Source: Candidatus Methanoperedens sp. | GTDB lineage: Archaea; Halobacteriota; Methanosarcinia; Methanosarcinales; Methanoperedenaceae | Length of the DNA: 32,000 nt | Direction: 5' to 3' | Assembly (NCBI GenBank): GCA_012026835.1 | Contig: VEPN01000016.1 | Location: forward strand, 19,328-51,327 | Shown: positions 5,137 to 23,173 of the stretch, piece after piece | Layout: each line of letters starts with the position of its first letter | How positions within the stretch are numbered: position 1 is the first letter of the stretch | Program-made: the position numbers and the translations under genes | The notes under the pieces: generated by a model | The model's database searches: none | Told to the model about the DNA's origin: nothing | What the model saw: the letters and a program-made list of their open reading frames with translations, nothing else

Positions 5137-6285
5137 ATGATACAGAAACTCCTTCGGAAATATTCGGGCTTTGTGACCCGCAGGCCGTTTGTCGTATTGA
5201 TATTTGTTCTTCTTGTCACGGTGTTTGCAATCCAGATGTCCGGCACCATACAAACACGCACAACAGAGATGAAAGACTTTCTTCCAAAGGATGTGGAAGC
5301 AATAGGTACGCTTTTTAAAATAGAGGACGAGTTCGGGAGCACGAACATCGTGAATCTTGTTGTAGAAGTAGATCCTCAATATACAGGATCGGACGAGGTA
5401 TCGGATGTAAGGGATCCGAGAGTGATGCGATATATGAACCAGCTTTCGGACATTGCGCTTCAGACGGAGGATGTACTGGAAGTCACAAGTCCTGCATCGG
5501 TCCTGAAAAGCATCAATGGCGGGCTTTTGCCCCAATCCATCAGGGAAATACGTGAGATGACGTATAAAAACGGGCTGCTTGACAGCTATATAAGTAAAGA
5601 TTACGCTACCGCTCTTGTAAGAATTAGAACGACCGACGATGTTGATCTTAATAATCTTGAACAGGAACTCAGCAAAATCATAACCCAGGTGCCAAAGCCG
5701 CCGGGCATCAAAACAAGCCTCGGTGGCAGTGTAATGGAAAGCCAGATAATGGAAAAATCTATCGGGCCGGATATGGCAAAAACATCATTATATTCGCTTA
5801 TCGGGATTCTGATGGTAATACTCCTGATTTTCCGCTCGATCAAATACGGTTTCACACCGATGACAACAATAATATTCGGAAGCATCTGGGCGATGGGTTA
5901 TGTGGGTCTTATAGGGATGGGATTGACCTCTGAGACATCAGGTGTTTTATCCATGATTATGGGAATCGGGATAGATTTCGGGATACAGGTCGTCACAAGA
6001 TACAGGCTTGAGCTTCCCGGGAAATCGCCTGAAGAGGCAATGATGATTTCACTTGACAATGTGATAATCCCAATGTCAACAACGACTCTTGCAGCACTTA
6101 TTGGTTTCGGGGCTATGTCCCTTGGCAAGCTGACTTTCCTGGCCGATATGGGAACGATGATGGGCTACGGTGTCGTGGCAAGCATGTTTGCTGCAATCAC
6201 AGTGGTTCCTGCACTTATAGTAATAATTGATAAAATCAATATAAAAGATATGTATAAAAATTTAACGAACAGATTTGAGGTATGA
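5137..6285 (+). CDS. RND-superfamily/MMPL-domain exporter, second half-transporter
   Basis: The 382-aa protein has the same architecture as the upstream gene (GIGIDFGIQVVTRYRLE). Its ATG directly abuts the upstream TAA (TAAATG). Confidence 0.85.
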   Translation: MIQKLLRKYSGFVTRRPFVVLIFVLLVTVFAIQMSGTIQTRTTEMKDFLPKDVEAIGTLFKIEDEFGSTNIVNLVVEVDPQYTGSDEVSDVRDPRVMRYMNQLSDIALQTEDVLEVTSPASVLKSINGGLLPQSIREIREMTYKNGLLDSYISKDYATALVRIRTTDDVDLNNLEQELSKIITQVPKPPGIKTSLGGSVMESQIMEKSIGPDMAKTSLYSLIGILMVILLIFRSIKYGFTPMTTIIFGSIWAMGYVGLIGMGLTSETSGVLSMIMGIGIDFGIQVVTRYRLELPGKSPEEAMMISLDNVIIPMSTTTLAALIGFGAMSLGKLTFLADMGTMMGYGVVASMFAAITVVPALIVIIDKINIKDMYKNLTNRFEV

Positions 6286-7526
6286 ACATGAGAAGCAAAT
6301 TATTTCTAATAACAGGTATGCTGATACTTCTTTTATCAGCCGCGTCTCCGGCCCTGGGTGTCCCGATTACGACAGCTACAGGAAGCAAGGTGCAGATGAA
6401 TTTCATGTACCAGGATCCCGACCCTGCCGAGGCCGGAAAGTACATAGACCTGAGATGGCAGGTCGTAAATACTGTGGGGGGAACACTGGATAACCTGAGG
6501 TTCCGCCTTGAGGCCGGGTATCCATTTTTATTTGAGGCCGGCGACAGCCCGGATAAGTACCTGGGTACATCGGCCGGGACAAACGATAAAGAGGTTTATT
6601 ATGTCCTGCATTACAAACTCAAGGTAGCAGACAACGCCCTTAAAGGGACATACAATGTAACCCTTGGATGGACAACGGGTGAAGGATGGACAAAAAAAGA
6701 CTTTCCCATTTACATCGACCCCAAACAATCCGATTTCGTAGTTGGGACACTTGTGACCTCGCCCGAAAAGCTGATAGCTGACACGGATGAAGCAAAGCTG
6801 TCCGTGGATATAGACAATATTGGAAAAGGAAATGCTGAGAACGTCAAAGTCAAACTTTTACTGCCGCAGGGTTTCAAGCCGACATACAGCTATTCAGATG
6901 AAGACAGTCTTGGCATAATCGAAAAGGGCGGCAGTAAAGAGGCAACTTTCTATGTGGATATCGACGAGAATATAACAGACGGGGAATATGATGCAAAACT
7001 TGACATCACTTACAGGGATGAAAATGATGAGACAAACCAGTACAGGACAAAAACACTTGACCTTAAGCTCCCTATCAAACCTGCCCCGCGTCTTGTAGTG
7101 GATTCAGTTTCATCCACTCCGGTAAACCTTGTGCCCGGAAGCAAAGCTGATATCCTTATCAAAGTCAGGAACAACGGCAATGAGAAAGCAGAAACTGTTT
7201 CTCTGCGTGTTTTCAAGGATTCATCGCAACCTTTTGAGTTCAGTGAGAAATCAGACTTCGTAGGAAAACTGGAGCCAGGCGAAAGCGGCGATGCAGTGAT
7301 AAAATTGACTGTTGATAGCGATGCTGCACCAAAGAAGTACCTGCTTGATGTGGAATTAAGAGGTATCGATCAGAAAGAGAATGTGGTGAGATTCAGCAGG
7401 ACAGTACCATTAACAGTGGTCGCAGAAACCGGGTCGTCCCTTAATGCCGGTTTGCTGGGAGTGCTCGTGGTTATACTCGGTATAATAGGAGTTGTATTTT
7501 ATTTGAAAAATGGAAAAAAATTATAA
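6282..7526 (+). CDS. Secreted CARDB/S-layer-like (COG1361-type) beta-rich protein with C-terminal membrane anchor
   Basis: The 414-aa protein has a signal peptide (LLLSAASPALG), repeated NxGxxxAENV/NNGNEKAETV CARDB-like motifs and a C-terminal TM (LLGVLVVILGIIGVVFYL). It overlaps the exporter gene by ATGA. Confidence 0.7.
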   Translation: MNMRSKLFLITGMLILLLSAASPALGVPITTATGSKVQMNFMYQDPDPAEAGKYIDLRWQVVNTVGGTLDNLRFRLEAGYPFLFEAGDSPDKYLGTSAGTNDKEVYYVLHYKLKVADNALKGTYNVTLGWTTGEGWTKKDFPIYIDPKQSDFVVGTLVTSPEKLIADTDEAKLSVDIDNIGKGNAENVKVKLLLPQGFKPTYSYSDEDSLGIIEKGGSKEATFYVDIDENITDGEYDAKLDITYRDENDETNQYRTKTLDLKLPIKPAPRLVVDSVSSTPVNLVPGSKADILIKVRNNGNEKAETVSLRVFKDSSQPFEFSEKSDFVGKLEPGESGDAVIKLTVDSDAAPKKYLLDVELRGIDQKENVVRFSRTVPLTVVAETGSSLNAGLLGVLVVILGIIGVVFYLKNGKKL

Positions 7527-14143: not shown

Positions 14144-14294
14144 GATTTATGGATAAATTATAGCAATGGAATAACTATATTGGTAGTTACGGAGTTAGAA
14201 CTACTTGTAAGAAAGATAAATTAACTTATACTTTTCAAAAAACCCAAGAGTATAAATCACAAATTATTTAAGGCATCAGGATAACATTAATCTG

Positions 14295-14314
14295 AAAAAC
14301 GGGATAAAAACGGG
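14295..14314. promoter_or_regulatory. Direct repeat AAAAACGGG x2, spaced 11 bp, upstream of the cytochrome operon
   Basis: AAAAACGGG-at-AAAAACGGG lies about 60-80 nt upstream of the ATG at 14373, in an AT-rich leader. It is a candidate regulator site only. Confidence 0.2.
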
Positions 14315-14372
14315 TACAATATCCACAATGGATAGGAAAACGTATTAAAATGGTTAAGAGAGGTAAAGAATA

Positions 14373-15329
14373 ATGTTACTTATTAGTTCGAGCGTATGCT
14401 CATTATTGAAAAAAAATTATGTGGTGATTTTAATTGCAGCATTAATTTTATTAATCCCGGACGTCTCTGCCCAGCAGGACGTATCCTGTTACCACTGTCA
14501 TACAGCGGTAGTCAATGAATTCAGGAATAACATCCATTACCAAGGGGGCTTCTCCTGCGCGGACTGCCATGGAGGCGTTTTGGAGTCTAACACTACTGTA
14601 ATATCAGCCAATGCGATGTCGGGGAATTTTATTGGAAAGCCTTCAAGAAACAATATAACCGACATATGCTCAAAATGCCATAGTCGGGAAGCAAGCGACT
14701 ACAAACAGAGCATTCACTGGTATGCCATTGAGAAAGGCCATCCTGAAGCAGCGACATGCACGGACTGTCATGGAGTACATGAGATACGTGCAATAGCGGA
14801 TAACAAGTCATTATCGAACCACCAGAACAGTCCTGCTACATGTGCAAAGTGCCACTCGAACAAGGAATTAATGAGCGCATGGTATTATGGCATCAAAACT
14901 GACAGGATCGATACTTATAAAGAATCTTTCCACTGGAAGGCGCTACGAAATGGATACAACGTAGTTGCAACCTGCGCGGATTGTCACAATAATCACGTCA
15001 CAAAATCGCATGAAGATCCTTCATCAAGCACATATCCCGACAACCTTCCCAAAACATGCGGCAAGGAAGGCTGCCATCCAGGGGCAAGATTTGACGCCAA
15101 GGTAGCAGCGGGGCTTGTACATGATAAGGAATCATTGCATACAGGAGAACTTGTATTCAACCAGTCACGCCTTGATCCGCAGATGAAGGCATATTTCCTC
15201 GGCCCTTTTGATCTTGCTTACTGGATAGCTATATTTTTCAAGATACTGACAACAGGCGTCATAGGTCTCTTTGCTGCCATGGTAATTCTGGATTTCGCCT
15301 CAAGATTCAAGATACACAGGAGATGGTGA
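14373..15329 (+). CDS. Membrane-anchored multiheme cytochrome c (six CXXCH plus one CX4CH)
   Basis: There is a signal peptide (..IPDVSA/QQD). Heme motifs are CYHCH, CADCH, CSKCH, CTDCH, CAKCH, CADCH and CGKEGCH. A C-terminal TM helix is present (WIAIFFKILTTGVIGLFAAMVIL). Confidence 0.9.
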   Translation: MLLISSSVCSLLKKNYVVILIAALILLIPDVSAQQDVSCYHCHTAVVNEFRNNIHYQGGFSCADCHGGVLESNTTVISANAMSGNFIGKPSRNNITDICSKCHSREASDYKQSIHWYAIEKGHPEAATCTDCHGVHEIRAIADNKSLSNHQNSPATCAKCHSNKELMSAWYYGIKTDRIDTYKESFHWKALRNGYNVVATCADCHNNHVTKSHEDPSSSTYPDNLPKTCGKEGCHPGARFDAKVAAGLVHDKESLHTGELVFNQSRLDPQMKAYFLGPFDLAYWIAIFFKILTTGVIGLFAAMVILDFASRFKIHRRW

Positions 15330-15391
15330 CTATGCGAGAGCAATCATTAATTGAGGTTTCATATTCTAAGGAACTGAAAGGAGATAACACG

Positions 15392-16090
15392 ATGGGTGAA
15401 GTTTTTTTTAAACGTTTTACATTCAATCAACTTGTACAGCACTGGGTAATGATAGCCACGTTCATGGCCTTGGTGGTAACAGGGATGCCTGTCAAATTCC
15501 CTGATGCATGGTGGTCGCCCGTGATCATCAACATGGTCGGGGGATTTGAAATGAGAACATTGATACACCATGCAGCCGGTATTTCAATGGTAATGCTTGG
15601 TATATACCATATCACCTACCATGTTTTTGTTGATAAAGAGTCCCTGCTTGACAGGAAAGTGTGGCCCACATTGAAAGATGCAAAGGACTTCTGGCAAACG
15701 GTCCTTTTTTACTTCGGGAAAGCAGAAAACCCAAAATACGGCAGGTATAGCTGGAAAGAAAAATTCGATTACTGGGGAGCTTTCTGGGGTATGGTGATGC
15801 TTTGCGTAACAGGTCTCATAATGATGTTCCCGTTCATCGCAATGGAATACATACCTTATGCATATGTCCATCTTGCAACTATTATCCATACAGATGAAGC
15901 ATTACTGGCGACCCTGTTTATTTTTATAGTCCACTGGTGGAATGTTCATTACAGCCCTGAGGTATTCCCAATGTCGAAAGCATGGCTGACCGGCAACCTT
16001 TCAGAGGAACAGATGAAGCATGAACATCCCCTTGAATACGAGGAAATTATGAGACAGATGCGGGAAAAAAACGAAAAGGTGCCTGATTGA
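15392..16090 (+). CDS. Dihaem b-type cytochrome, FdnI/HydC (prokaryotic cytochrome b561) family
   Basis: The protein has 4-5 TM helices with conserved His in TM1 (VQHW), TM2 (IHHAAG) and TM4/5 (IIHTDE, VHWWNVH). ATG 15392 is preceded by AAAGGAGA. An alternative ATG at 15323 overlaps the cytochrome c stop (ATGGTGA). Confidence 0.85.
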   Translation: MGEVFFKRFTFNQLVQHWVMIATFMALVVTGMPVKFPDAWWSPVIINMVGGFEMRTLIHHAAGISMVMLGIYHITYHVFVDKESLLDRKVWPTLKDAKDFWQTVLFYFGKAENPKYGRYSWKEKFDYWGAFWGMVMLCVTGLIMMFPFIAMEYIPYAYVHLATIIHTDEALLATLFIFIVHWWNVHYSPEVFPMSKAWLTGNLSEEQMKHEHPLEYEEIMRQMREKNEKVPD

Positions 16091-16116
16091 TTTCTTCCCC
16101 CTCTTTTTTATTTATA
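16091..16116 (+). terminator. T-rich tract after the cytochrome operon
   Basis: TTTCTTCCCCCTCTTTTTTATTTA follows the stop directly. Confidence 0.35.
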
Positions 16117-16203: not shown

Positions 16204-17343
16204 ATGCGCCATCCGAAACATAATTACTGGGAAGGAAAATCGATATCTCCACTATCGCTGACCGGGAATTTGACCATAACGGAACTTGTTGATGACATAT
16301 TCGATGGTATGGGGTATAATGCGAAAAGACTGGCTGAGGCCTGCCACCTGTTCAAGGCAATGATAGATGAGAACTCAACAGTATGCCTGACACTGGCAGG
16401 CGCAATGACACCAGTGGGTATGGGCGGGGGAATTATCAAGATGATAGAGAACGGTTTTATCGACTGGATAGTTACAACAGGGGCGAATACATATCATGAT
16501 ATGCATTTCGCATACGGGCTGCCTGTGCACCAGGGGGATTACACGGCCGATGACAACGAACTGGCGGATAATGATGTTGTCAGGATATATGATGTTTATA
16601 TCGACATGGAACGCACGCTTATGGCCCAGGATAAGATCATCCAGGCGCTTACCAGGAAAGCGGTCGAAAGGAACCTGTTCCCTGGAAAATTCTCAACCGC
16701 GTATTATTATAAAACCCTCGGCGAAGGGATACTGGAGACTACAAAGCACCCTGAGCGTTCATTCATTGCCTCAGCCTCAAGGAACAATGTCCCGGTTTTT
16801 GTGCCATCTTTTGCCGACTCTTCAGTCGGGATGAACACAAGTTATATTCCCATCATAGCAAGCGCGATATCGGGTTCAAAAGATCTCAACACCGTGGATT
16901 TTGTTGACCCAAGCCCCACGATGGATGTTCTTGAAAGTGCTGCCATAGTTTTTAGCAGCATGAAGGAAGATATACCGCGTGGCGCTCTTGAAGTCGGCGG
17001 AGGTGTTCCTAAGAATTTCCTGCAGCAGACAGCGCCTACTATCTCCCAGATACTTGGAATGGAGTGCCCGGGTGAGAATTATGTTGTGCAGGTAACTGTT
17101 GACCGCCCGGATACCGGGGGGCTTTCAGGAGCTACGATCAATGAAGGTAAATCATGGGGAAAAATCCCGAAAGCAGGAGAGGGAAATGTTGTACCGTACC
17201 TTGATGCAACAGTCGGGATCCCGATAATTTTTGCTTATGCCCTTGAGAACTGCAAGCCAAGGAAACTTAAGAGGTATGGCAACAGATTACCCCGGCTGGC
17301 AGGGGAGCTTGTGGAAGCGGCTAAGGAGAAAGTGGAGAAATAA
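16204..17343 (+). CDS. dys: Deoxyhypusine synthase
   Basis: The 379-aa protein has TLAGAMTPVGMGG and TTGANTYHD NAD-binding blocks and the catalytic-lysine motif NEGKSWGKI. Confidence 0.88.
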   Translation: MRHPKHNYWEGKSISPLSLTGNLTITELVDDIFDGMGYNAKRLAEACHLFKAMIDENSTVCLTLAGAMTPVGMGGGIIKMIENGFIDWIVTTGANTYHDMHFAYGLPVHQGDYTADDNELADNDVVRIYDVYIDMERTLMAQDKIIQALTRKAVERNLFPGKFSTAYYYKTLGEGILETTKHPERSFIASASRNNVPVFVPSFADSSVGMNTSYIPIIASAISGSKDLNTVDFVDPSPTMDVLESAAIVFSSMKEDIPRGALEVGGGVPKNFLQQTAPTISQILGMECPGENYVVQVTVDRPDTGGLSGATINEGKSWGKIPKAGEGNVVPYLDATVGIPIIFAYALENCKPRKLKRYGNRLPRLAGELVEAAKEKVEK

Positions 17344-18844: not shown

Positions 18845-19911
18845 GAGATAACCTCGGAAAGCATATCCAATTCCTGCGCCACCCTGATCTCCCGTGCTAT
18901 ACGCCGCCCCATTGATAGTTTTTCATCTACCAGGTCAGAATACGGCGAACCTGAAATGAACAGGTTTGTTCCTGCGACGATGCGAGCTGATATCTCGAAA
19001 ACTTTTAACTCAAGTGAATCCGTTACCACGGCTTCAAGACAGAATGGCCCTATCATGCCCCCGAACAGTTCAAGTGATTTTTCGACGACCTGTTCTCCCA
19101 TCTCAAATATTCTGGGAAGAAGTGATTCTCTTACCATTAGCGGTATATTACCTGTTACGACAAAAGTAGGATATATCCCGGCCTCTGCAAGTTCTGTTGG
19201 CGATCCGATCCTGAATATCTCATCGGCGTTCGATTCCACGCGCCTGTCAATCCCCAGAAGTTCAAGAGTTCCTTTACTTAATGCGTACCCGTCTTTCTTT
19301 ATTGGTGAATAAAAATAATGCATGTAATAACGTGTCCCAAGAACGAACTCCTGTATTGTATATTTTTCATTCAGGTTAATCCGCTTCTGGAAATCCGAAT
19401 AATTCTTTACAACAAAGAAGCCCATTCCGCCTTTTGCCCCGTAATATTTTACCATCATCGGTGAATCAATATCCTCGGGATTCTTTATTTGTCGGGGCAT
19501 CTTTATTCCCGCAGATTCAAGCCATTTGCGGCTCATATCCCTGTCCGATTCCCATTCAAGCACGCGGCGGTTGCCATAAGTGGGCAGGCGCAGTTTCTGG
19601 AAATTTTCAGCTCTGAGATATTCCACAAAAGAACCGTGCGGAATTATTATGGCGTTTTTTTCCGCAAGTTCACGGGATTTTGTGAGTATGTCCTTGTAGT
19701 CTTTCACTATGAAATATTCATCAGGCTTCGCTTTTGGAAAGGCATCGTAGAACTTTGGCGGCGCACCCATGCATATCCCGATAGTCCTGAAACCTTCTTT
19801 CCTTGCGCCGTCAAAAATCTGGAGGCTGCTGTGCGAGCAGACCGTGGCAATGGCTATATTGTCCTTATCGTAGCTTTCCAGAATGCCAATTATCTCCTGT
19901 TTTTCGACCAT
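18841..19911 (-). CDS. purP: 5-formaminoimidazole-4-carboxamide ribonucleotide (FAICAR) synthetase PurP
   Basis: This is the archaeal ATP-grasp enzyme. MVEKQEIIGILESYDKDNIAIATVCSHSSLQIFDGARKEGF matches the PurP N-terminus, so I chose the second ATG (19911) over 19935. It has an ATGA overlap with the downstream flavoprotein gene. Confidence 0.88.
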   Translation of the reverse strand: MVEKQEIIGILESYDKDNIAIATVCSHSSLQIFDGARKEGFRTIGICMGAPPKFYDAFPKAKPDEYFIVKDYKDILTKSRELAEKNAIIIPHGSFVEYLRAENFQKLRLPTYGNRRVLEWESDRDMSRKWLESAGIKMPRQIKNPEDIDSPMMVKYYGAKGGMGFFVVKNYSDFQKRINLNEKYTIQEFVLGTRYYMHYFYSPIKKDGYALSKGTLELLGIDRRVESNADEIFRIGSPTELAEAGIYPTFVVTGNIPLMVRESLLPRIFEMGEQVVEKSLELFGGMIGPFCLEAVVTDSLELKVFEISARIVAGTNLFISGSPYSDLVDEKLSMGRRIAREIRVAQELDMLSEVIS

Positions 19912-21350: not shown

Positions 21351-21914
21351 ATGACTGATGAAATTATTATAGGTATCAGCGGGGCTTCAGGAGTACAGTA
21401 CGGGATAAGACTTCTTGAAGCATTTAAAGATATGGGGAATTTTGAAACTCATTTAATAATCTCAGGTTCAGCAGAAAAGCTTATCAAGATCGAGACTGGT
21501 TTTTCTGTGCAGGACGTGAAGCAACTGGGAAAACATGTTTATGCGGACAATGACTTCACAGCACCCGTGGCAAGCGGTTCGCACAGGACAAAGGGCATGA
21601 TAATCGCCCCGTGCAGCATGAAAACGCTTGCATCGATAGCGACCGGGATGTCAGATACGTTGATTTCAAGAGCGGCCGATGTATGCCTGAAAGAAAGACG
21701 TCCTCTTGTCCTGATGGTGCGCGAAACGCCCCTGAATTTGATTCATGTCGAGAACATGGAACGCGCAATAAAGGCAGGGGCTTCCATCCTCCCGGCATGT
21801 CCGGCTTTTTATCCAAAACCCAAGACTATTGATGAAATAATCGACTTCATGGCAGGGCGCGCACTTGACCTCCTTGGAATCGAGCATAAGCTGTACAGGA
21901 GGTGGCGTGAATGA
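21351..21914 (+). CDS. ubiX: Flavin prenyltransferase UbiX (prFMN synthase)
   Basis: The 187-aa protein has IIGISGASGVQYGIRLLE and APCSMKTLASIA motifs typical of UbiX/Pad1. Confidence 0.9.
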   Translation: MTDEIIIGISGASGVQYGIRLLEAFKDMGNFETHLIISGSAEKLIKIETGFSVQDVKQLGKHVYADNDFTAPVASGSHRTKGMIIAPCSMKTLASIATGMSDTLISRAADVCLKERRPLVLMVRETPLNLIHVENMERAIKAGASILPACPAFYPKPKTIDEIIDFMAGRALDLLGIEHKLYRRWRE

Positions 21915-23173
21915 GTTTCAGGGGATTCATAGAACAACTAAGGTCTGAAGGGAAACTCAGGGATATTGGAACACCGATCTCGCCTGTATATGAAGTTTCC
22001 GCTATCGCTGGAAGAGAACCCACGCTTTTTAGCAATGTAAATGGTTCAAAAGTTGCAATGAATATCATCGGTTCAAGGCAACTGCTTGCAGAAGCACTGG
22101 GCGTAAAGCCTGAGAGAATCATATCCCATTTATCCTTACACCCGCCTGAAGGAAAAGTTCAACTTGTTGCAGATTCGCCCACAAAAGAGGTGGTTGAAAA
22201 ACCCGACCTCTCAAAACTTCCAATACTTACGCACTTTGAAGGGGACGGTGCCCCGTATATTACATCAGGCGTGGTGGTTTCGGAATACGAAGGTGTCATG
22301 AACGCATCGATACACAGGCTCCGCGTAATCGGAAAAGACAAACTTGCGGCGCGGCTTGTGGAATTCAGGCACACTTACAATCTTCATAAAAAAGCCGCCG
22401 AAAATGGGGAGGCACTGCCCGTTGCTATCATTATTGGCATCGACCCTGTAACGCTTTTTGCGGTCTCGACACGTGTGCCGGAAGGAAAAGAGTTCGAATA
22501 TGCATCGTCGCTCCAGGGCGGGCCGATTGAGGTATTCGAATGTGGGAATGGTATCAAAGTCCCGCATGCTGAGATAGTGCTTGAGGGATACATCCATCCG
22601 ACGGAACTTGTGGATGAAGGGCCGTTCGTGGATATCAGCGGCACCTATGATATTGTGAGGAGACAACCTGTCATATATATAACAAAAATTATGCACAGGA
22701 AAGACCCGATATACCATGCCCTGATGCCTGCAGGAAATGAACATAATATCCTTATGGGAGTGCCTTATGAACCGCTGATCTTCAATGAAGTGAAAAAAGT
22801 GGCGGATGTAAGGAACGTGGTACTTACTCCCGGAGGCTGCTGGTATTTCCATGCGGCTGTCCGGATACATAAAAATAACGATGAAGAGGCAAAGAAAGCT
22901 ATCGAGGCGGCGTTTTTGGCGCACAAGAGCCTGAAACATGTAGTGATAGTGGATGACGATATAAATATTTTCGACCCCAATGATATCGAATTCGCTATTG
23001 CGACCCGCGTTAAAGGCGACGAGGACATATACATTTATCCGAATGTCAGGGGCAGCACTCTTGACCCGCGCTCTGAGAACGGGATAGGGACGAAAGTGGG
23101 CATTGATGCTACGATGGATTTGAGCAAGAGGTGGAAGTTCGAGAGGGCAAGACGGCCGGAGATAAAAGGCTGA
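21911..23173 (+). CDS. UbiD-family prFMN-dependent (de)carboxylase
   Basis: The 420-aa protein shows UbiD-like blocks (NASIHRLRV, GGPIEVFEC, EGPFVDISGTY, HVVIVDDDINIFD). It has an ATGA overlap with ubiX. The substrate is unknown. Confidence 0.85.
   Translation: MSFRGFIEQLRSEGKLRDIGTPISPVYEVSAIAGREPTLFSNVNGSKVAMNIIGSRQLLAEALGVKPERIISHLSLHPPEGKVQLVADSPTKEVVEKPDLSKLPILTHFEGDGAPYITSGVVVSEYEGVMNASIHRLRVIGKDKLAARLVEFRHTYNLHKKAAENGEALPVAIIIGIDPVTLFAVSTRVPEGKEFEYASSLQGGPIEVFECGNGIKVPHAEIVLEGYIHPTELVDEGPFVDISGTYDIVRRQPVIYITKIMHRKDPIYHALMPAGNEHNILMGVPYEPLIFNEVKKVADVRNVVLTPGGCWYFHAAVRIHKNNDEEAKKAIEAAFLAHKSLKHVVIVDDDINIFDPNDIEFAIATRVKGDEDIYIYPNVRGSTLDPRSENGIGTKVGIDATMDLSKRWKFERARRPEIKG

Follow-up and report, generated by a model that had tools for sequence, protein, structure and literature searches.

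We analysed a 32,000-nucleotide stretch of DNA from Candidatus Methanoperedens sp. (the window; positions 19,328 to 51,327 of contig VEPN01000016.1, assembly GCA_012026835.1), and in particular two adjacent genes that encode a multihaem cytochrome c and a membrane cytochrome b. We consider it likely that these proteins form a two-subunit menaquinol:cytochrome c oxidoreductase that passes electrons out of the quinone pool in the membrane and on to the cell surface. The exit of electrons from this pool is a central unsolved step of metal- or electrode-dependent anaerobic methanotrophy. The operon is the most widely conserved candidate for that step, and the most expressed one in the Mn(IV)-reducing species. 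Both the cluster and the hypothesis that it is a quinol oxidoreductase are already in the literature, so finding the operon adds little by itself. What is new here is a seventh haem, a map of the key residues, fusions of the two proteins, the placement of the cytochrome b in a tree with cytochrome-c-linked relatives, and a model of the complex.

The main features of the two genes are:

14373..15329, plus strand: heptahaem cytochrome c, 318 amino acids (a.a.), six CXXCH motifs and one CX4CH motif
14373..14471, plus strand: signal peptide, residues 1-33 (hydrophobic stretch 7-37; likely cleaved after VSA and before QQ)
15057..15077, plus strand: CGKEGCH (CX4CH), residues 229-235, seventh haem site, from sequence and conservation
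15213..15314, plus strand: C-terminal transmembrane (TM) anchor, residues 281-314 (hydropathy 2.2; helix 281-317 in the AlphaFold2 model)
15323..16090, plus strand: dihaem cytochrome b, FdnI fold, 255 a.a., four TM helices (PF01292 at E 5e-10)
15752..15778, plus strand: WKEKFDYWG, residues W144-G152, cytoplasmic start of TM3 (family signature [WY]x[EQ]KF[DE]Y[WF][AG])

The cytochrome c has a seventh haem site

The CXXCH motifs of the cytochrome c start at residues 39, 62, 99, 129, 157, and 201. An earlier note, which was made from the DNA sequence alone, had described these six motifs and a CX4CH motif at 15057-15077, and its coordinates are exact. The note had also proposed a signal peptide and a C-terminal anchor, which coincide with hydrophobic stretches at residues 7-37 and 281-314. 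The anchor helix precedes a basic tail (RFKIHRRW).

Judging from its homologues, the CX4CH motif is a true haem site and not a chance occurrence. Over 100 of the 120 homologues listed, down to about 42% identity, retain the motif as CGKxxCH or CEKxxCH, and three homologues carry a seventh CXXCH instead, without CX4CH. Across 45 homologues (down to 42% identity), 13 histidines are invariant and His41 is nearly so. These 14 histidines would fit seven bis-His haems. Met82 and Met167 are likewise conserved, so one of the haems might be His/Met instead.

Three internal repeats, which the earlier note had also noticed, are dihaem modules of the form CxxCH ... [YF][KR]x[SN][IF]H[WY] ... [ST]CxDCH. 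The repeat segments match each other at E values of 2e-10, 5e-6, and 1e-3 (BLASTP). Comparisons to known families were less specific. Pfam matched nothing more specific than generic multihaem families (Cytochrome_C7, E 2e-10), and a sequence search of the PDB gave only local matches to the haem motifs of NrfA. By Foldseek, the predicted structure has only a generic resemblance in haem packing to HAO, MtrA, and NrfB.

The cytochrome b is of the FdnI type

We searched the solved structures with a profile built from 13 relatives of the cytochrome b. It matched just one of them, E. coli FdnI (1kqf_C), and this match (E 4e-21) was full-length. His40, His82, His189, and His204 align to the haem ligands His18, His57, His155, and His169 of FdnI, and they lie on TM1, TM2, and TM4 (two on TM4), as in FdnI. 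We propose that His40 and His204 ligate the cytoplasmic-side haem and that His82 and His189 ligate the outer haem.

The AlphaFold2 model of the cytochrome b has a predicted local distance difference test score (pLDDT) of 85, and Foldseek matched it to 1kqf_C at E 5.7e-7. Because the TM-score is 0.70/0.82 on FdnI, versus only 0.39/0.54 on the cytochrome b of hydrogenase-1, the protein is FdnI-type and not HydC/VhtC-type. Consistent with this, the NCBIfam model for the gamma subunit of formate dehydrogenase (FDH), TIGR01583, scores 53.4 bits (E 3e-14; the cut-off is 115.85), versus 26 bits for TIGR02125. The ESM Atlas gave only generic clusters ("cytochrome b / putative FDH gamma"). The earlier note had described an "FdnI/HydC-type" cytochrome b with four conserved histidines, directly after the cytochrome c. 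The FdnI fold, the four ligands, and the adjacency (the genes overlap) all hold; the HydC type does not.

Beyond the four ligands, there are two further invariant histidines, His96 (in the cytoplasmic half of TM2) and His235, and a nearly invariant one, His209. FdnI has no histidine at the position that matches His96. The best-conserved stretch of the family is the signature at the cytoplasmic start of TM3, which aligns to the Y109-K114 loop of FdnI. This loop reportedly lines the pocket for menaquinone, or for the inhibitor 2-heptyl-4-hydroxyquinoline N-oxide (HQNO), beside the cytoplasmic haem; we found no residue details of the HQNO site in the open literature. By analogy, the WKEKFDYWG loop is a candidate menaquinone site.

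The two genes stay together, and bacterial relatives are often fused

Of the 53 Methanoperedenaceae genomes, 43, from three of the four genera, encode an orthologue with 76% identity or more, and about half of the 53 have a paralogue with 44-50% identity. We examined 18 orthologous loci. In all of them, the gene for the cytochrome c is directly upstream of the gene for the cytochrome b, and the two are separate open reading frames (ORFs) with a stop codon between them. No adjacent reductase gene was found in any of the 18 loci. Deoxyhypusine synthase lies downstream of the pair in 8 of the 18.

Outside of the Methanoperedenaceae, there are at least 589 relatives in species-representative genomes, nearly all of them bacterial, and we examined the best 80. 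For 42 of the 80, a cytochrome with four or more haems is encoded directly upstream, and 34 of those 42 cytochromes have a C-terminal hydrophobic anchor. Another 27 of the 80 are single ORFs that have 7-23 haem motifs and one TM helix beside the b domain. The haem part precedes the b domain in 24 of these fusions and trails it in three. The window's cytochrome c aligns at near full length, including the anchor, to the seven-haem part of fusions (E 9e-37 for L056; also L090 and L070). These natural fusions are "Rosetta stone" evidence that the window's cytochromes c and b act as one functional unit, and the fusion proteins would be convenient for biochemistry and cryo-EM.

We also built a quick maximum-likelihood tree of the cytochrome b family. 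(Its deep branches are weak, so we draw no conclusion about the donor or the direction of any transfer.) Both clades of cytochrome b from Methanoperedens fall in a group of 88 rows, with a support of 89 by the Shimodaira-Hasegawa-like approximate likelihood ratio test (SH-aLRT). For 74 of the 88, the partners are multihaem cytochromes; no haem partner was seen for the rest. This group is apart from the gamma subunits of enzymes with molybdenum (Mo) and iron-sulfur (FeS) subunits, including the gamma subunit from this genome. Among 52 genomes of the sister family f2 (part of a 401-genome sample of the phylum), there was no relative at E ≤ 1e-25.

A predicted complex of the two cytochromes

The earlier note suggested structure modelling as a check of complex formation. 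We folded the cytochrome b and two haems together with the mature cytochrome c. The model scored 0.75, while the best of three controls scored 0.00. In the calibration of this score, 0.75 was reached by 58 of the 80 complexes with solved structures and by 2 of the 110 mismatched pairs, although the calibration, unlike our model, used neither our own alignments nor ligands. The runs shared at least 92% of the contacts, and the pLDDT of the partner was at least 78.

In the model, the anchor of the cytochrome c (residues 281-313) runs along TM4 of the cytochrome b (residues 183-212). The surroundings of the CX4CH motif (residues 229, 235, and 237-253) and the region of His187 of the cytochrome c touch the outer loops of the cytochrome b. 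The model supports a predicted interaction between the two cytochromes.

The pair corresponds to a published cluster

Leu et al. 2020 (mBio) described five "MK:cytochrome c oxidoreductase" clusters in the Methanoperedenaceae, where MK is menaquinone (PMC7327174). In their Groups 3 and 4, a cytochrome b is beside a "6-haem" cytochrome. Group 3 is in nearly all members of the family, while M. nitroreducens lacks Group 4, and in some genomes, Group 3 adjoins the 13-haem and 6-haem genes of an NrfD cluster (PMC7327174).

We assign the window pair to Group 3, and the 44-50%-identity paralogue corresponds to Group 4. As in Leu et al., the gene for a PF01292 cytochrome b adjoins the gene for a cytochrome c with six haems by CXXCH count. 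We identified the group from three patterns. First, the genome that we take to be M. nitroreducens (G002) has only the orthologue of the window pair and no Group 4 copy. Second, the gene order in locus L024 (c, b, 13-haem, 6-haem) equals that of ASW-6_01423-01426 in their Data Set S1A, where the cluster runs through 01427. Third, the Mn-2 tags 01547 (c) and 01548 (b) fit the plus-strand pair on contig C27, which includes the window, and the Mn-2 tags 02261 (c) and 02260 (b) fit the minus-strand pair on contig C43. The published six-haem label is a count of CXXCH motifs only, and the CX4CH motif makes it seven. The papers on Group 3 contain no structural, topological, or fusion analysis; otherwise, their cluster has no substantive difference from the window pair.

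Expression data is available for this cluster. During Mn(IV)-dependent methane oxidation by Ca. M. manganireducens, it was the most expressed of such clusters (PMC7082337). In the supplement of that study, the genes are 01519 (c, 138 transcripts per million) and 01520 (b, 35 transcripts per million); by the offset of the index from one annotation to the other, these correspond to Mn-2_01547 and Mn-2_01548, that is, to Group 3. On a +400 mV electrode, M. nitroreducens had a 2-fold higher level of the Group 3 cytochrome (PMC10542353).

Proposed function

Methanoperedens is held to use menaquinone (PMC7327174). Because of this, and because MqnA/D-type genes are present in the genome, the electron carrier is probably menaquinone and not methanophenazine. 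The earlier note had proposed a quinol/methanophenazine:cytochrome c oxidoreductase. The invariant pairing in 18 loci, the fusions, and the tree all favor a quinol module, and it is the methanophenazine part of the proposal that we would drop.

We propose that the complex works as follows. The four-helix cytochrome b would hold two b haems, stacked across the cytoplasmic membrane. The exported cytochrome c would hold seven covalently attached, and probably bis-His, haems on the outer face of the membrane, with its C-terminal helix held against TM4 of the cytochrome b, much as FdnH is held on FdnI. When the cell oxidises methane anaerobically, Fpo/Fqo and HdrDE would reduce menaquinone, and the complex would oxidise menaquinol, probably near the cytoplasmic-side haem. 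The electrons would then pass from haem bC to haem bP, to the CX4CH haem, and to the six other haems of the cytochrome c. From there, they would reach the large multihaem cytochromes of the S-layer and finally Mn(IV), Fe(III), or an electrode. The gene structure, the motifs, the FdnI fold, the conserved pairing, and the natural fusions are observed; that the two proteins form a complex (which the structural model supports), which quinone they use, where it binds, and which way the electrons flow are inferred. The practical gains are a haem count of seven, ligand and quinone-site residues to mutate, and a predicted topology with the CX4CH haem at the junction of b and c.

Several points weigh against this proposal. 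FdnI, the structural template, runs the opposite way, so the fold by itself gives no direction. The cytochrome b scores just 53 bits against the 116-bit cut-off for FDH gamma and is thus no equivalog of a protein that has been characterised. For the cytochrome c, the predicted structure is of mediocre quality (pLDDT 70.5), and Foldseek found no match to it in the PDB at E ≤ 0.001. The complex was modelled with a different setup (our own alignments, with haems included) than the one that was calibrated, and it may partly reflect memory of the packing of the FdnH and FdnI helices in 1KQF. Finally, we matched the window's genes to the published locus tags by genome features and index offsets, and not by sequence identity.

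Other readings of the pair

A bolder version of the menaquinol oxidoreductase proposal, which strikes us as unlikely in its full form, is that the quinone site is on the cytoplasmic side and that the complex runs a "reverse redox loop." The protons from the quinol would be released inside the cell, and the electrons would be driven outward by the membrane potential. The complex would thus be a potential-tolerant exit valve of low yield. It would be the archaeal split member of a very large and so far unnamed family of bacterial fusions (with 7-23 haems), and a ligation switch at His96 (and His209) would gate it. If the quinone site is cytoplasmic, as in FdnI, then this step would consume membrane potential, as has been argued for CbcL. 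Growth of Geobacter that depends on CbcL has about half the yield, which is consistent with a lower H+/e- ratio, and gating by redox-dependent haem ligation has been speculated for CbcL.

We give rather less credence to the idea that the same complex works mainly inward. Electrons from surface cytochromes or extracellular donors would reduce menaquinone on the cytoplasmic side of the membrane, and the complex would be an arm of a redox loop that generates proton-motive force, like FdnGHI, with the heptahaem cytochrome c in place of FdnGH. FdnI works inward: quinone is reduced by electrons that flow in. FdnI is also the closest solved relative, the conserved motif aligns to the quinone loop on its cytoplasmic side, and chains of bis-His haems are generally reversible. 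However, the organism is known to oxidise methane with external acceptors, for which quinol must be oxidised. The high expression on Mn(IV) and the rise on an oxidising electrode also argue against inward flow, and the studied analogues CbcL and CbcBA act as quinol oxidases.

A little less probable still is a quinol dehydrogenase that, like NrfH or NapC, supplies a soluble reductase outside the cytoplasm (one for nitrite or a different oxyanion) instead of a chain for extracellular electron transfer (EET). The cytochrome c has weak local matches to the haem motifs of NrfH, NapC, and NrfA, and some of its homologues are labelled "nitrate/TMAO reductase-like tetraheme cytochrome c subunit" in the source database. 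Also, a community KEGG table has an expressed "nrfH" entry for Ca. M. manganireducens (PMC7082337). However, the NCBIfam matches to DmsE, NrfH, and NapC are far under the family cut-offs (as are those to NapC/NirT), the anchor is C-terminal, and there are seven haems, not four. Furthermore, none of the 18 loci has a reductase beside the pair, and no NarG was above the cut-off.

Last, the cytochrome b could be a spare gamma subunit for an FDH or a hydrogenase that is encoded elsewhere, with its adjacency to the cytochrome c being incidental, as the best NCBIfam match (FDH gamma, E 3e-14) and the JGI labels of many homologues ("formate dehydrogenase subunit gamma") might suggest, but this is effectively refuted: the pairing of c and b is invariant and the two are often fused, the cytochrome b is apart from the Mo/FeS-linked gammas in the tree (the earlier note had considered that it might cluster with FDH or hydrogenase gammas), the genome's FdnGH-like enzyme comes with a gamma subunit of its own, and a search for an uptake hydrogenase found none.

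Layout of the locus

The two plus-strand ORFs (14373-15329 and 15323-16090) overlap by 7 nt, and the stop codon of the first gene sits within the opening codons of the second (AGATGGTGACTATG). From the sequence, the layout looks like a two-gene operon, with these putative signals and neighbours:

14144..14372, plus strand: AT-rich intergenic region of 229 bp, upstream of the operon
14250-14257, plus strand: TATA-like box GTATAAAT, putative promoter element
14342-14351, plus strand: TATA-like box GTATTAAAAT, putative promoter element
14357-14363, plus strand: GAGAGGT, similar to a ribosome-binding site
16091..16115, plus strand: T-rich tract right behind the second stop codon, candidate archaeal terminator
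16204-17343: deoxyhypusine synthase, the next gene after the operon, with its own AT-rich upstream region

A scan for sigma-70 promoters and hairpin terminators found nothing above shuffled sequences, but its model is bacterial and not applicable to an archaeon. According to a Pfam scan, the genes that flank the pair encode adenine deaminase and deoxyhypusine synthase.

Two other gene pairs are nearby. About 2.4-3 kb upstream of the window's start (L003 7734-8974, or G000:C27:15733-16973), a 211-a.a. protein with a molybdopterin domain (PF00174) is translationally coupled to a 202-a.a. cytochrome b (PF01292). This pair is a YedY/MsrP-like periplasmic oxidoreductase with a b subunit that is not of the MsrQ type, and it is unrelated to the c-b operon. 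About 5 kb downstream of the operon, the window has a UbiX-UbiD pair (21351-23173). Given the futalosine pathway (the MqnA/D-type genes are on contigs C41 and C93), this pair could belong to quinone biosynthesis.

The genome

The window lies on contig C27. The genome measures 3.32 Mb and has a completeness of 99.8%. All of the named homologues of the window's proteins are from Candidatus Methanoperedens. The genome encodes McrA and two MqnA/D-type proteins, and it has 11 matches to cytochrome c maturation-type proteins. Its giant multihaem cytochromes have 113, 52, 40, 19, and 19 CXXCH motifs. The largest open frames are:

G000:C49:10744-27588, plus strand: 5615 a.a., 113 CXXCH
G000:C86:46320-62645, minus strand: 5442 a.a., 52 CXXCH

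Ca. M. manganireducens was reported to have S-layer cytochromes with 113, 52, and 19 haems and a membrane FDH (PMC7082337). The set of giant cytochromes and the FDH in this genome match those of Ca. M. manganireducens.

Contig C43 encodes a paralogous c-then-b pair (43-44% identity). The only FdnGH-like enzyme in the genome is on contig C42, where genes for a Mo subunit (1051 a.a.) and an FeS subunit (268 a.a.) are followed by a gene for the enzyme's own b (gamma) subunit, which shares only some 26-30% identity with the window's cytochrome b. The genome also has a Rieske/b6 cluster with two 6-haem cytochromes. We searched the genome for an uptake NiFe hydrogenase and did not find one, and a search for NarG gave nothing above the cut-off with the query that we used (the best match was 25 bits).

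Variants of the module in other loci

In a contig from Zixibacteria (L018, 2020-8005), the module is duplicated in tandem: an 11-haem cytochrome c, a cytochrome b, a 9-haem cytochrome c, another cytochrome b, and an 18-haem cytochrome. The last of these has 682 a.a., with 17 CXXCH motifs and one CX3CH motif. More broadly, a second copy of the b domain is present in at least 34 of the 80 bacterial loci, which suggests that c-b units form modular arrays.

Metagenome-assembled genomes from Syntrophaceae and from deltaproteobacteria (L050, L077, and L098) encode reverse-order fusions of about 716 a.a. Their b domain is N-terminal, and additional TM helices and seven haem motifs come after it; an anchored 6-haem cytochrome is encoded separately, upstream. 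Archaea of family f6 (L108-L110 and L116) have a distinct archaeal clade of the b family (SH-aLRT 100). Their b genes are flanked by genes for a 355-a.a. protein with a hydrophobic C-terminal end and a 520-566-a.a. protein with a single CXXCH motif.

In locus L001 (G000:C43:17000-36900), three paralogues of 480 a.a. with no Pfam match flank the Group 4 pair:

5478-6920, minus strand: 480-a.a. paralogue, L001
7505-8947, minus strand: 480-a.a. paralogue, L001
10991-12433, minus strand: 480-a.a. paralogue, L001

In another Methanoperedens (L029), a haem-free ORF of 488 a.a. follows the Group 4 pair. These 480- and 488-a.a. proteins may be unrecognised accessory subunits of the Group 4 cluster.

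Comparison with other known systems

The NapC/NirT/NrfH proteins have an N-terminal anchor and four haems, whereas the window's cytochrome c has a C-terminal anchor and seven. We rejected membership in these families (NrfH scores 30 bits against a cut-off of 134, and NapC/NirT scores 22 against 311).

The earlier note also likened the pair to the modules of cytochrome b and multihaem cytochrome that were proposed for the ANME-2 anaerobic methanotrophic archaea. In Mco, from ANME-2a/2b, a cytochrome b is beside a multihaem cytochrome c (with 7-11 haems), and the two are proposed to link the electron carrier to EET (Chadwick et al. 2022, PMC9012536). The likeness lies in this pairing of b and c and in the proposed role. 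In Mco, the cytochrome b is a sister of VhtC, the order is b then c, and the carrier is methanophenazine, while the window has an FdnI-type b and the order c then b (PMC9012536). We rejected Mco/VhtC-type membership because of the FdnI-type scores and fold, the c-then-b order, and the lack of relatives at E ≤ 1e-25 in the 52 genomes of family f2; VhtC itself was not aligned.

FdnI (1KQF) shares with the window's cytochrome b its fold, its four aligned haem ligands, the aligned loop in the quinone region, and a partner that is anchored by a C-terminal helix. The partners differ. FdnI works with a 4x[4Fe-4S] protein and a Mo enzyme, while the window's cytochrome b is paired with a heptahaem cytochrome c, and no genes for subunits with molybdenum-bis(pyranopterin guanine dinucleotide) or 4Fe-4S clusters are beside it (the neighbours are adenine deaminase and deoxyhypusine synthase). 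Electron flow in the window's complex is probably opposite to that in FdnI.

We compared the window pair to CbcBA and CbcL from Geobacter by their published descriptions only. CbcBA from G. sulfurreducens also has a seven-haem cytochrome c with a C-terminal TM anchor and a dihaem cytochrome b with four TM helices, and the gene for the cytochrome c is also transcribed first. Genetics has shown that CbcBA is a quinol-oxidase route to extracellular acceptors; it is under the control of sigma-54 and acts at potentials below -0.21 V only (bioRxiv 10.1101/2021.04.15.440034). CbcB resembles thiosulfate reductase and provides three histidines, with the fourth coming from the C-terminal domain of CbcA (bioRxiv 10.1101/2021.04.15.440034). 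Unlike CbcB, the window's cytochrome b holds all four ligands itself. We considered His315, at the C-terminus of the window's cytochrome c, as a haem b ligand like the one in CbcA, and rejected it because it is not conserved (homologues have H, Q, K, or N).

CbcL combines a periplasmic multihaem c domain with bis-His ligation and a dihaem b domain with FDH-like pairs of histidines (PMC9129911; bioRxiv 10.1101/2022.08.31.506072), as the window pair appears to. Both CbcL and the window's cytochrome b have more histidines than two haems need; in the window, the extras are His96 and His209. The earlier note's comparison to CbcL is apt for the architecture. CbcL is one protein with nine haems and six TM helices, while the window's complex would have two polypeptides (separate ORFs in all 18 loci), with seven haems and 4+1 TM helices. 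The bacterial fusion relatives of the window's cytochrome b share the layout of CbcL.

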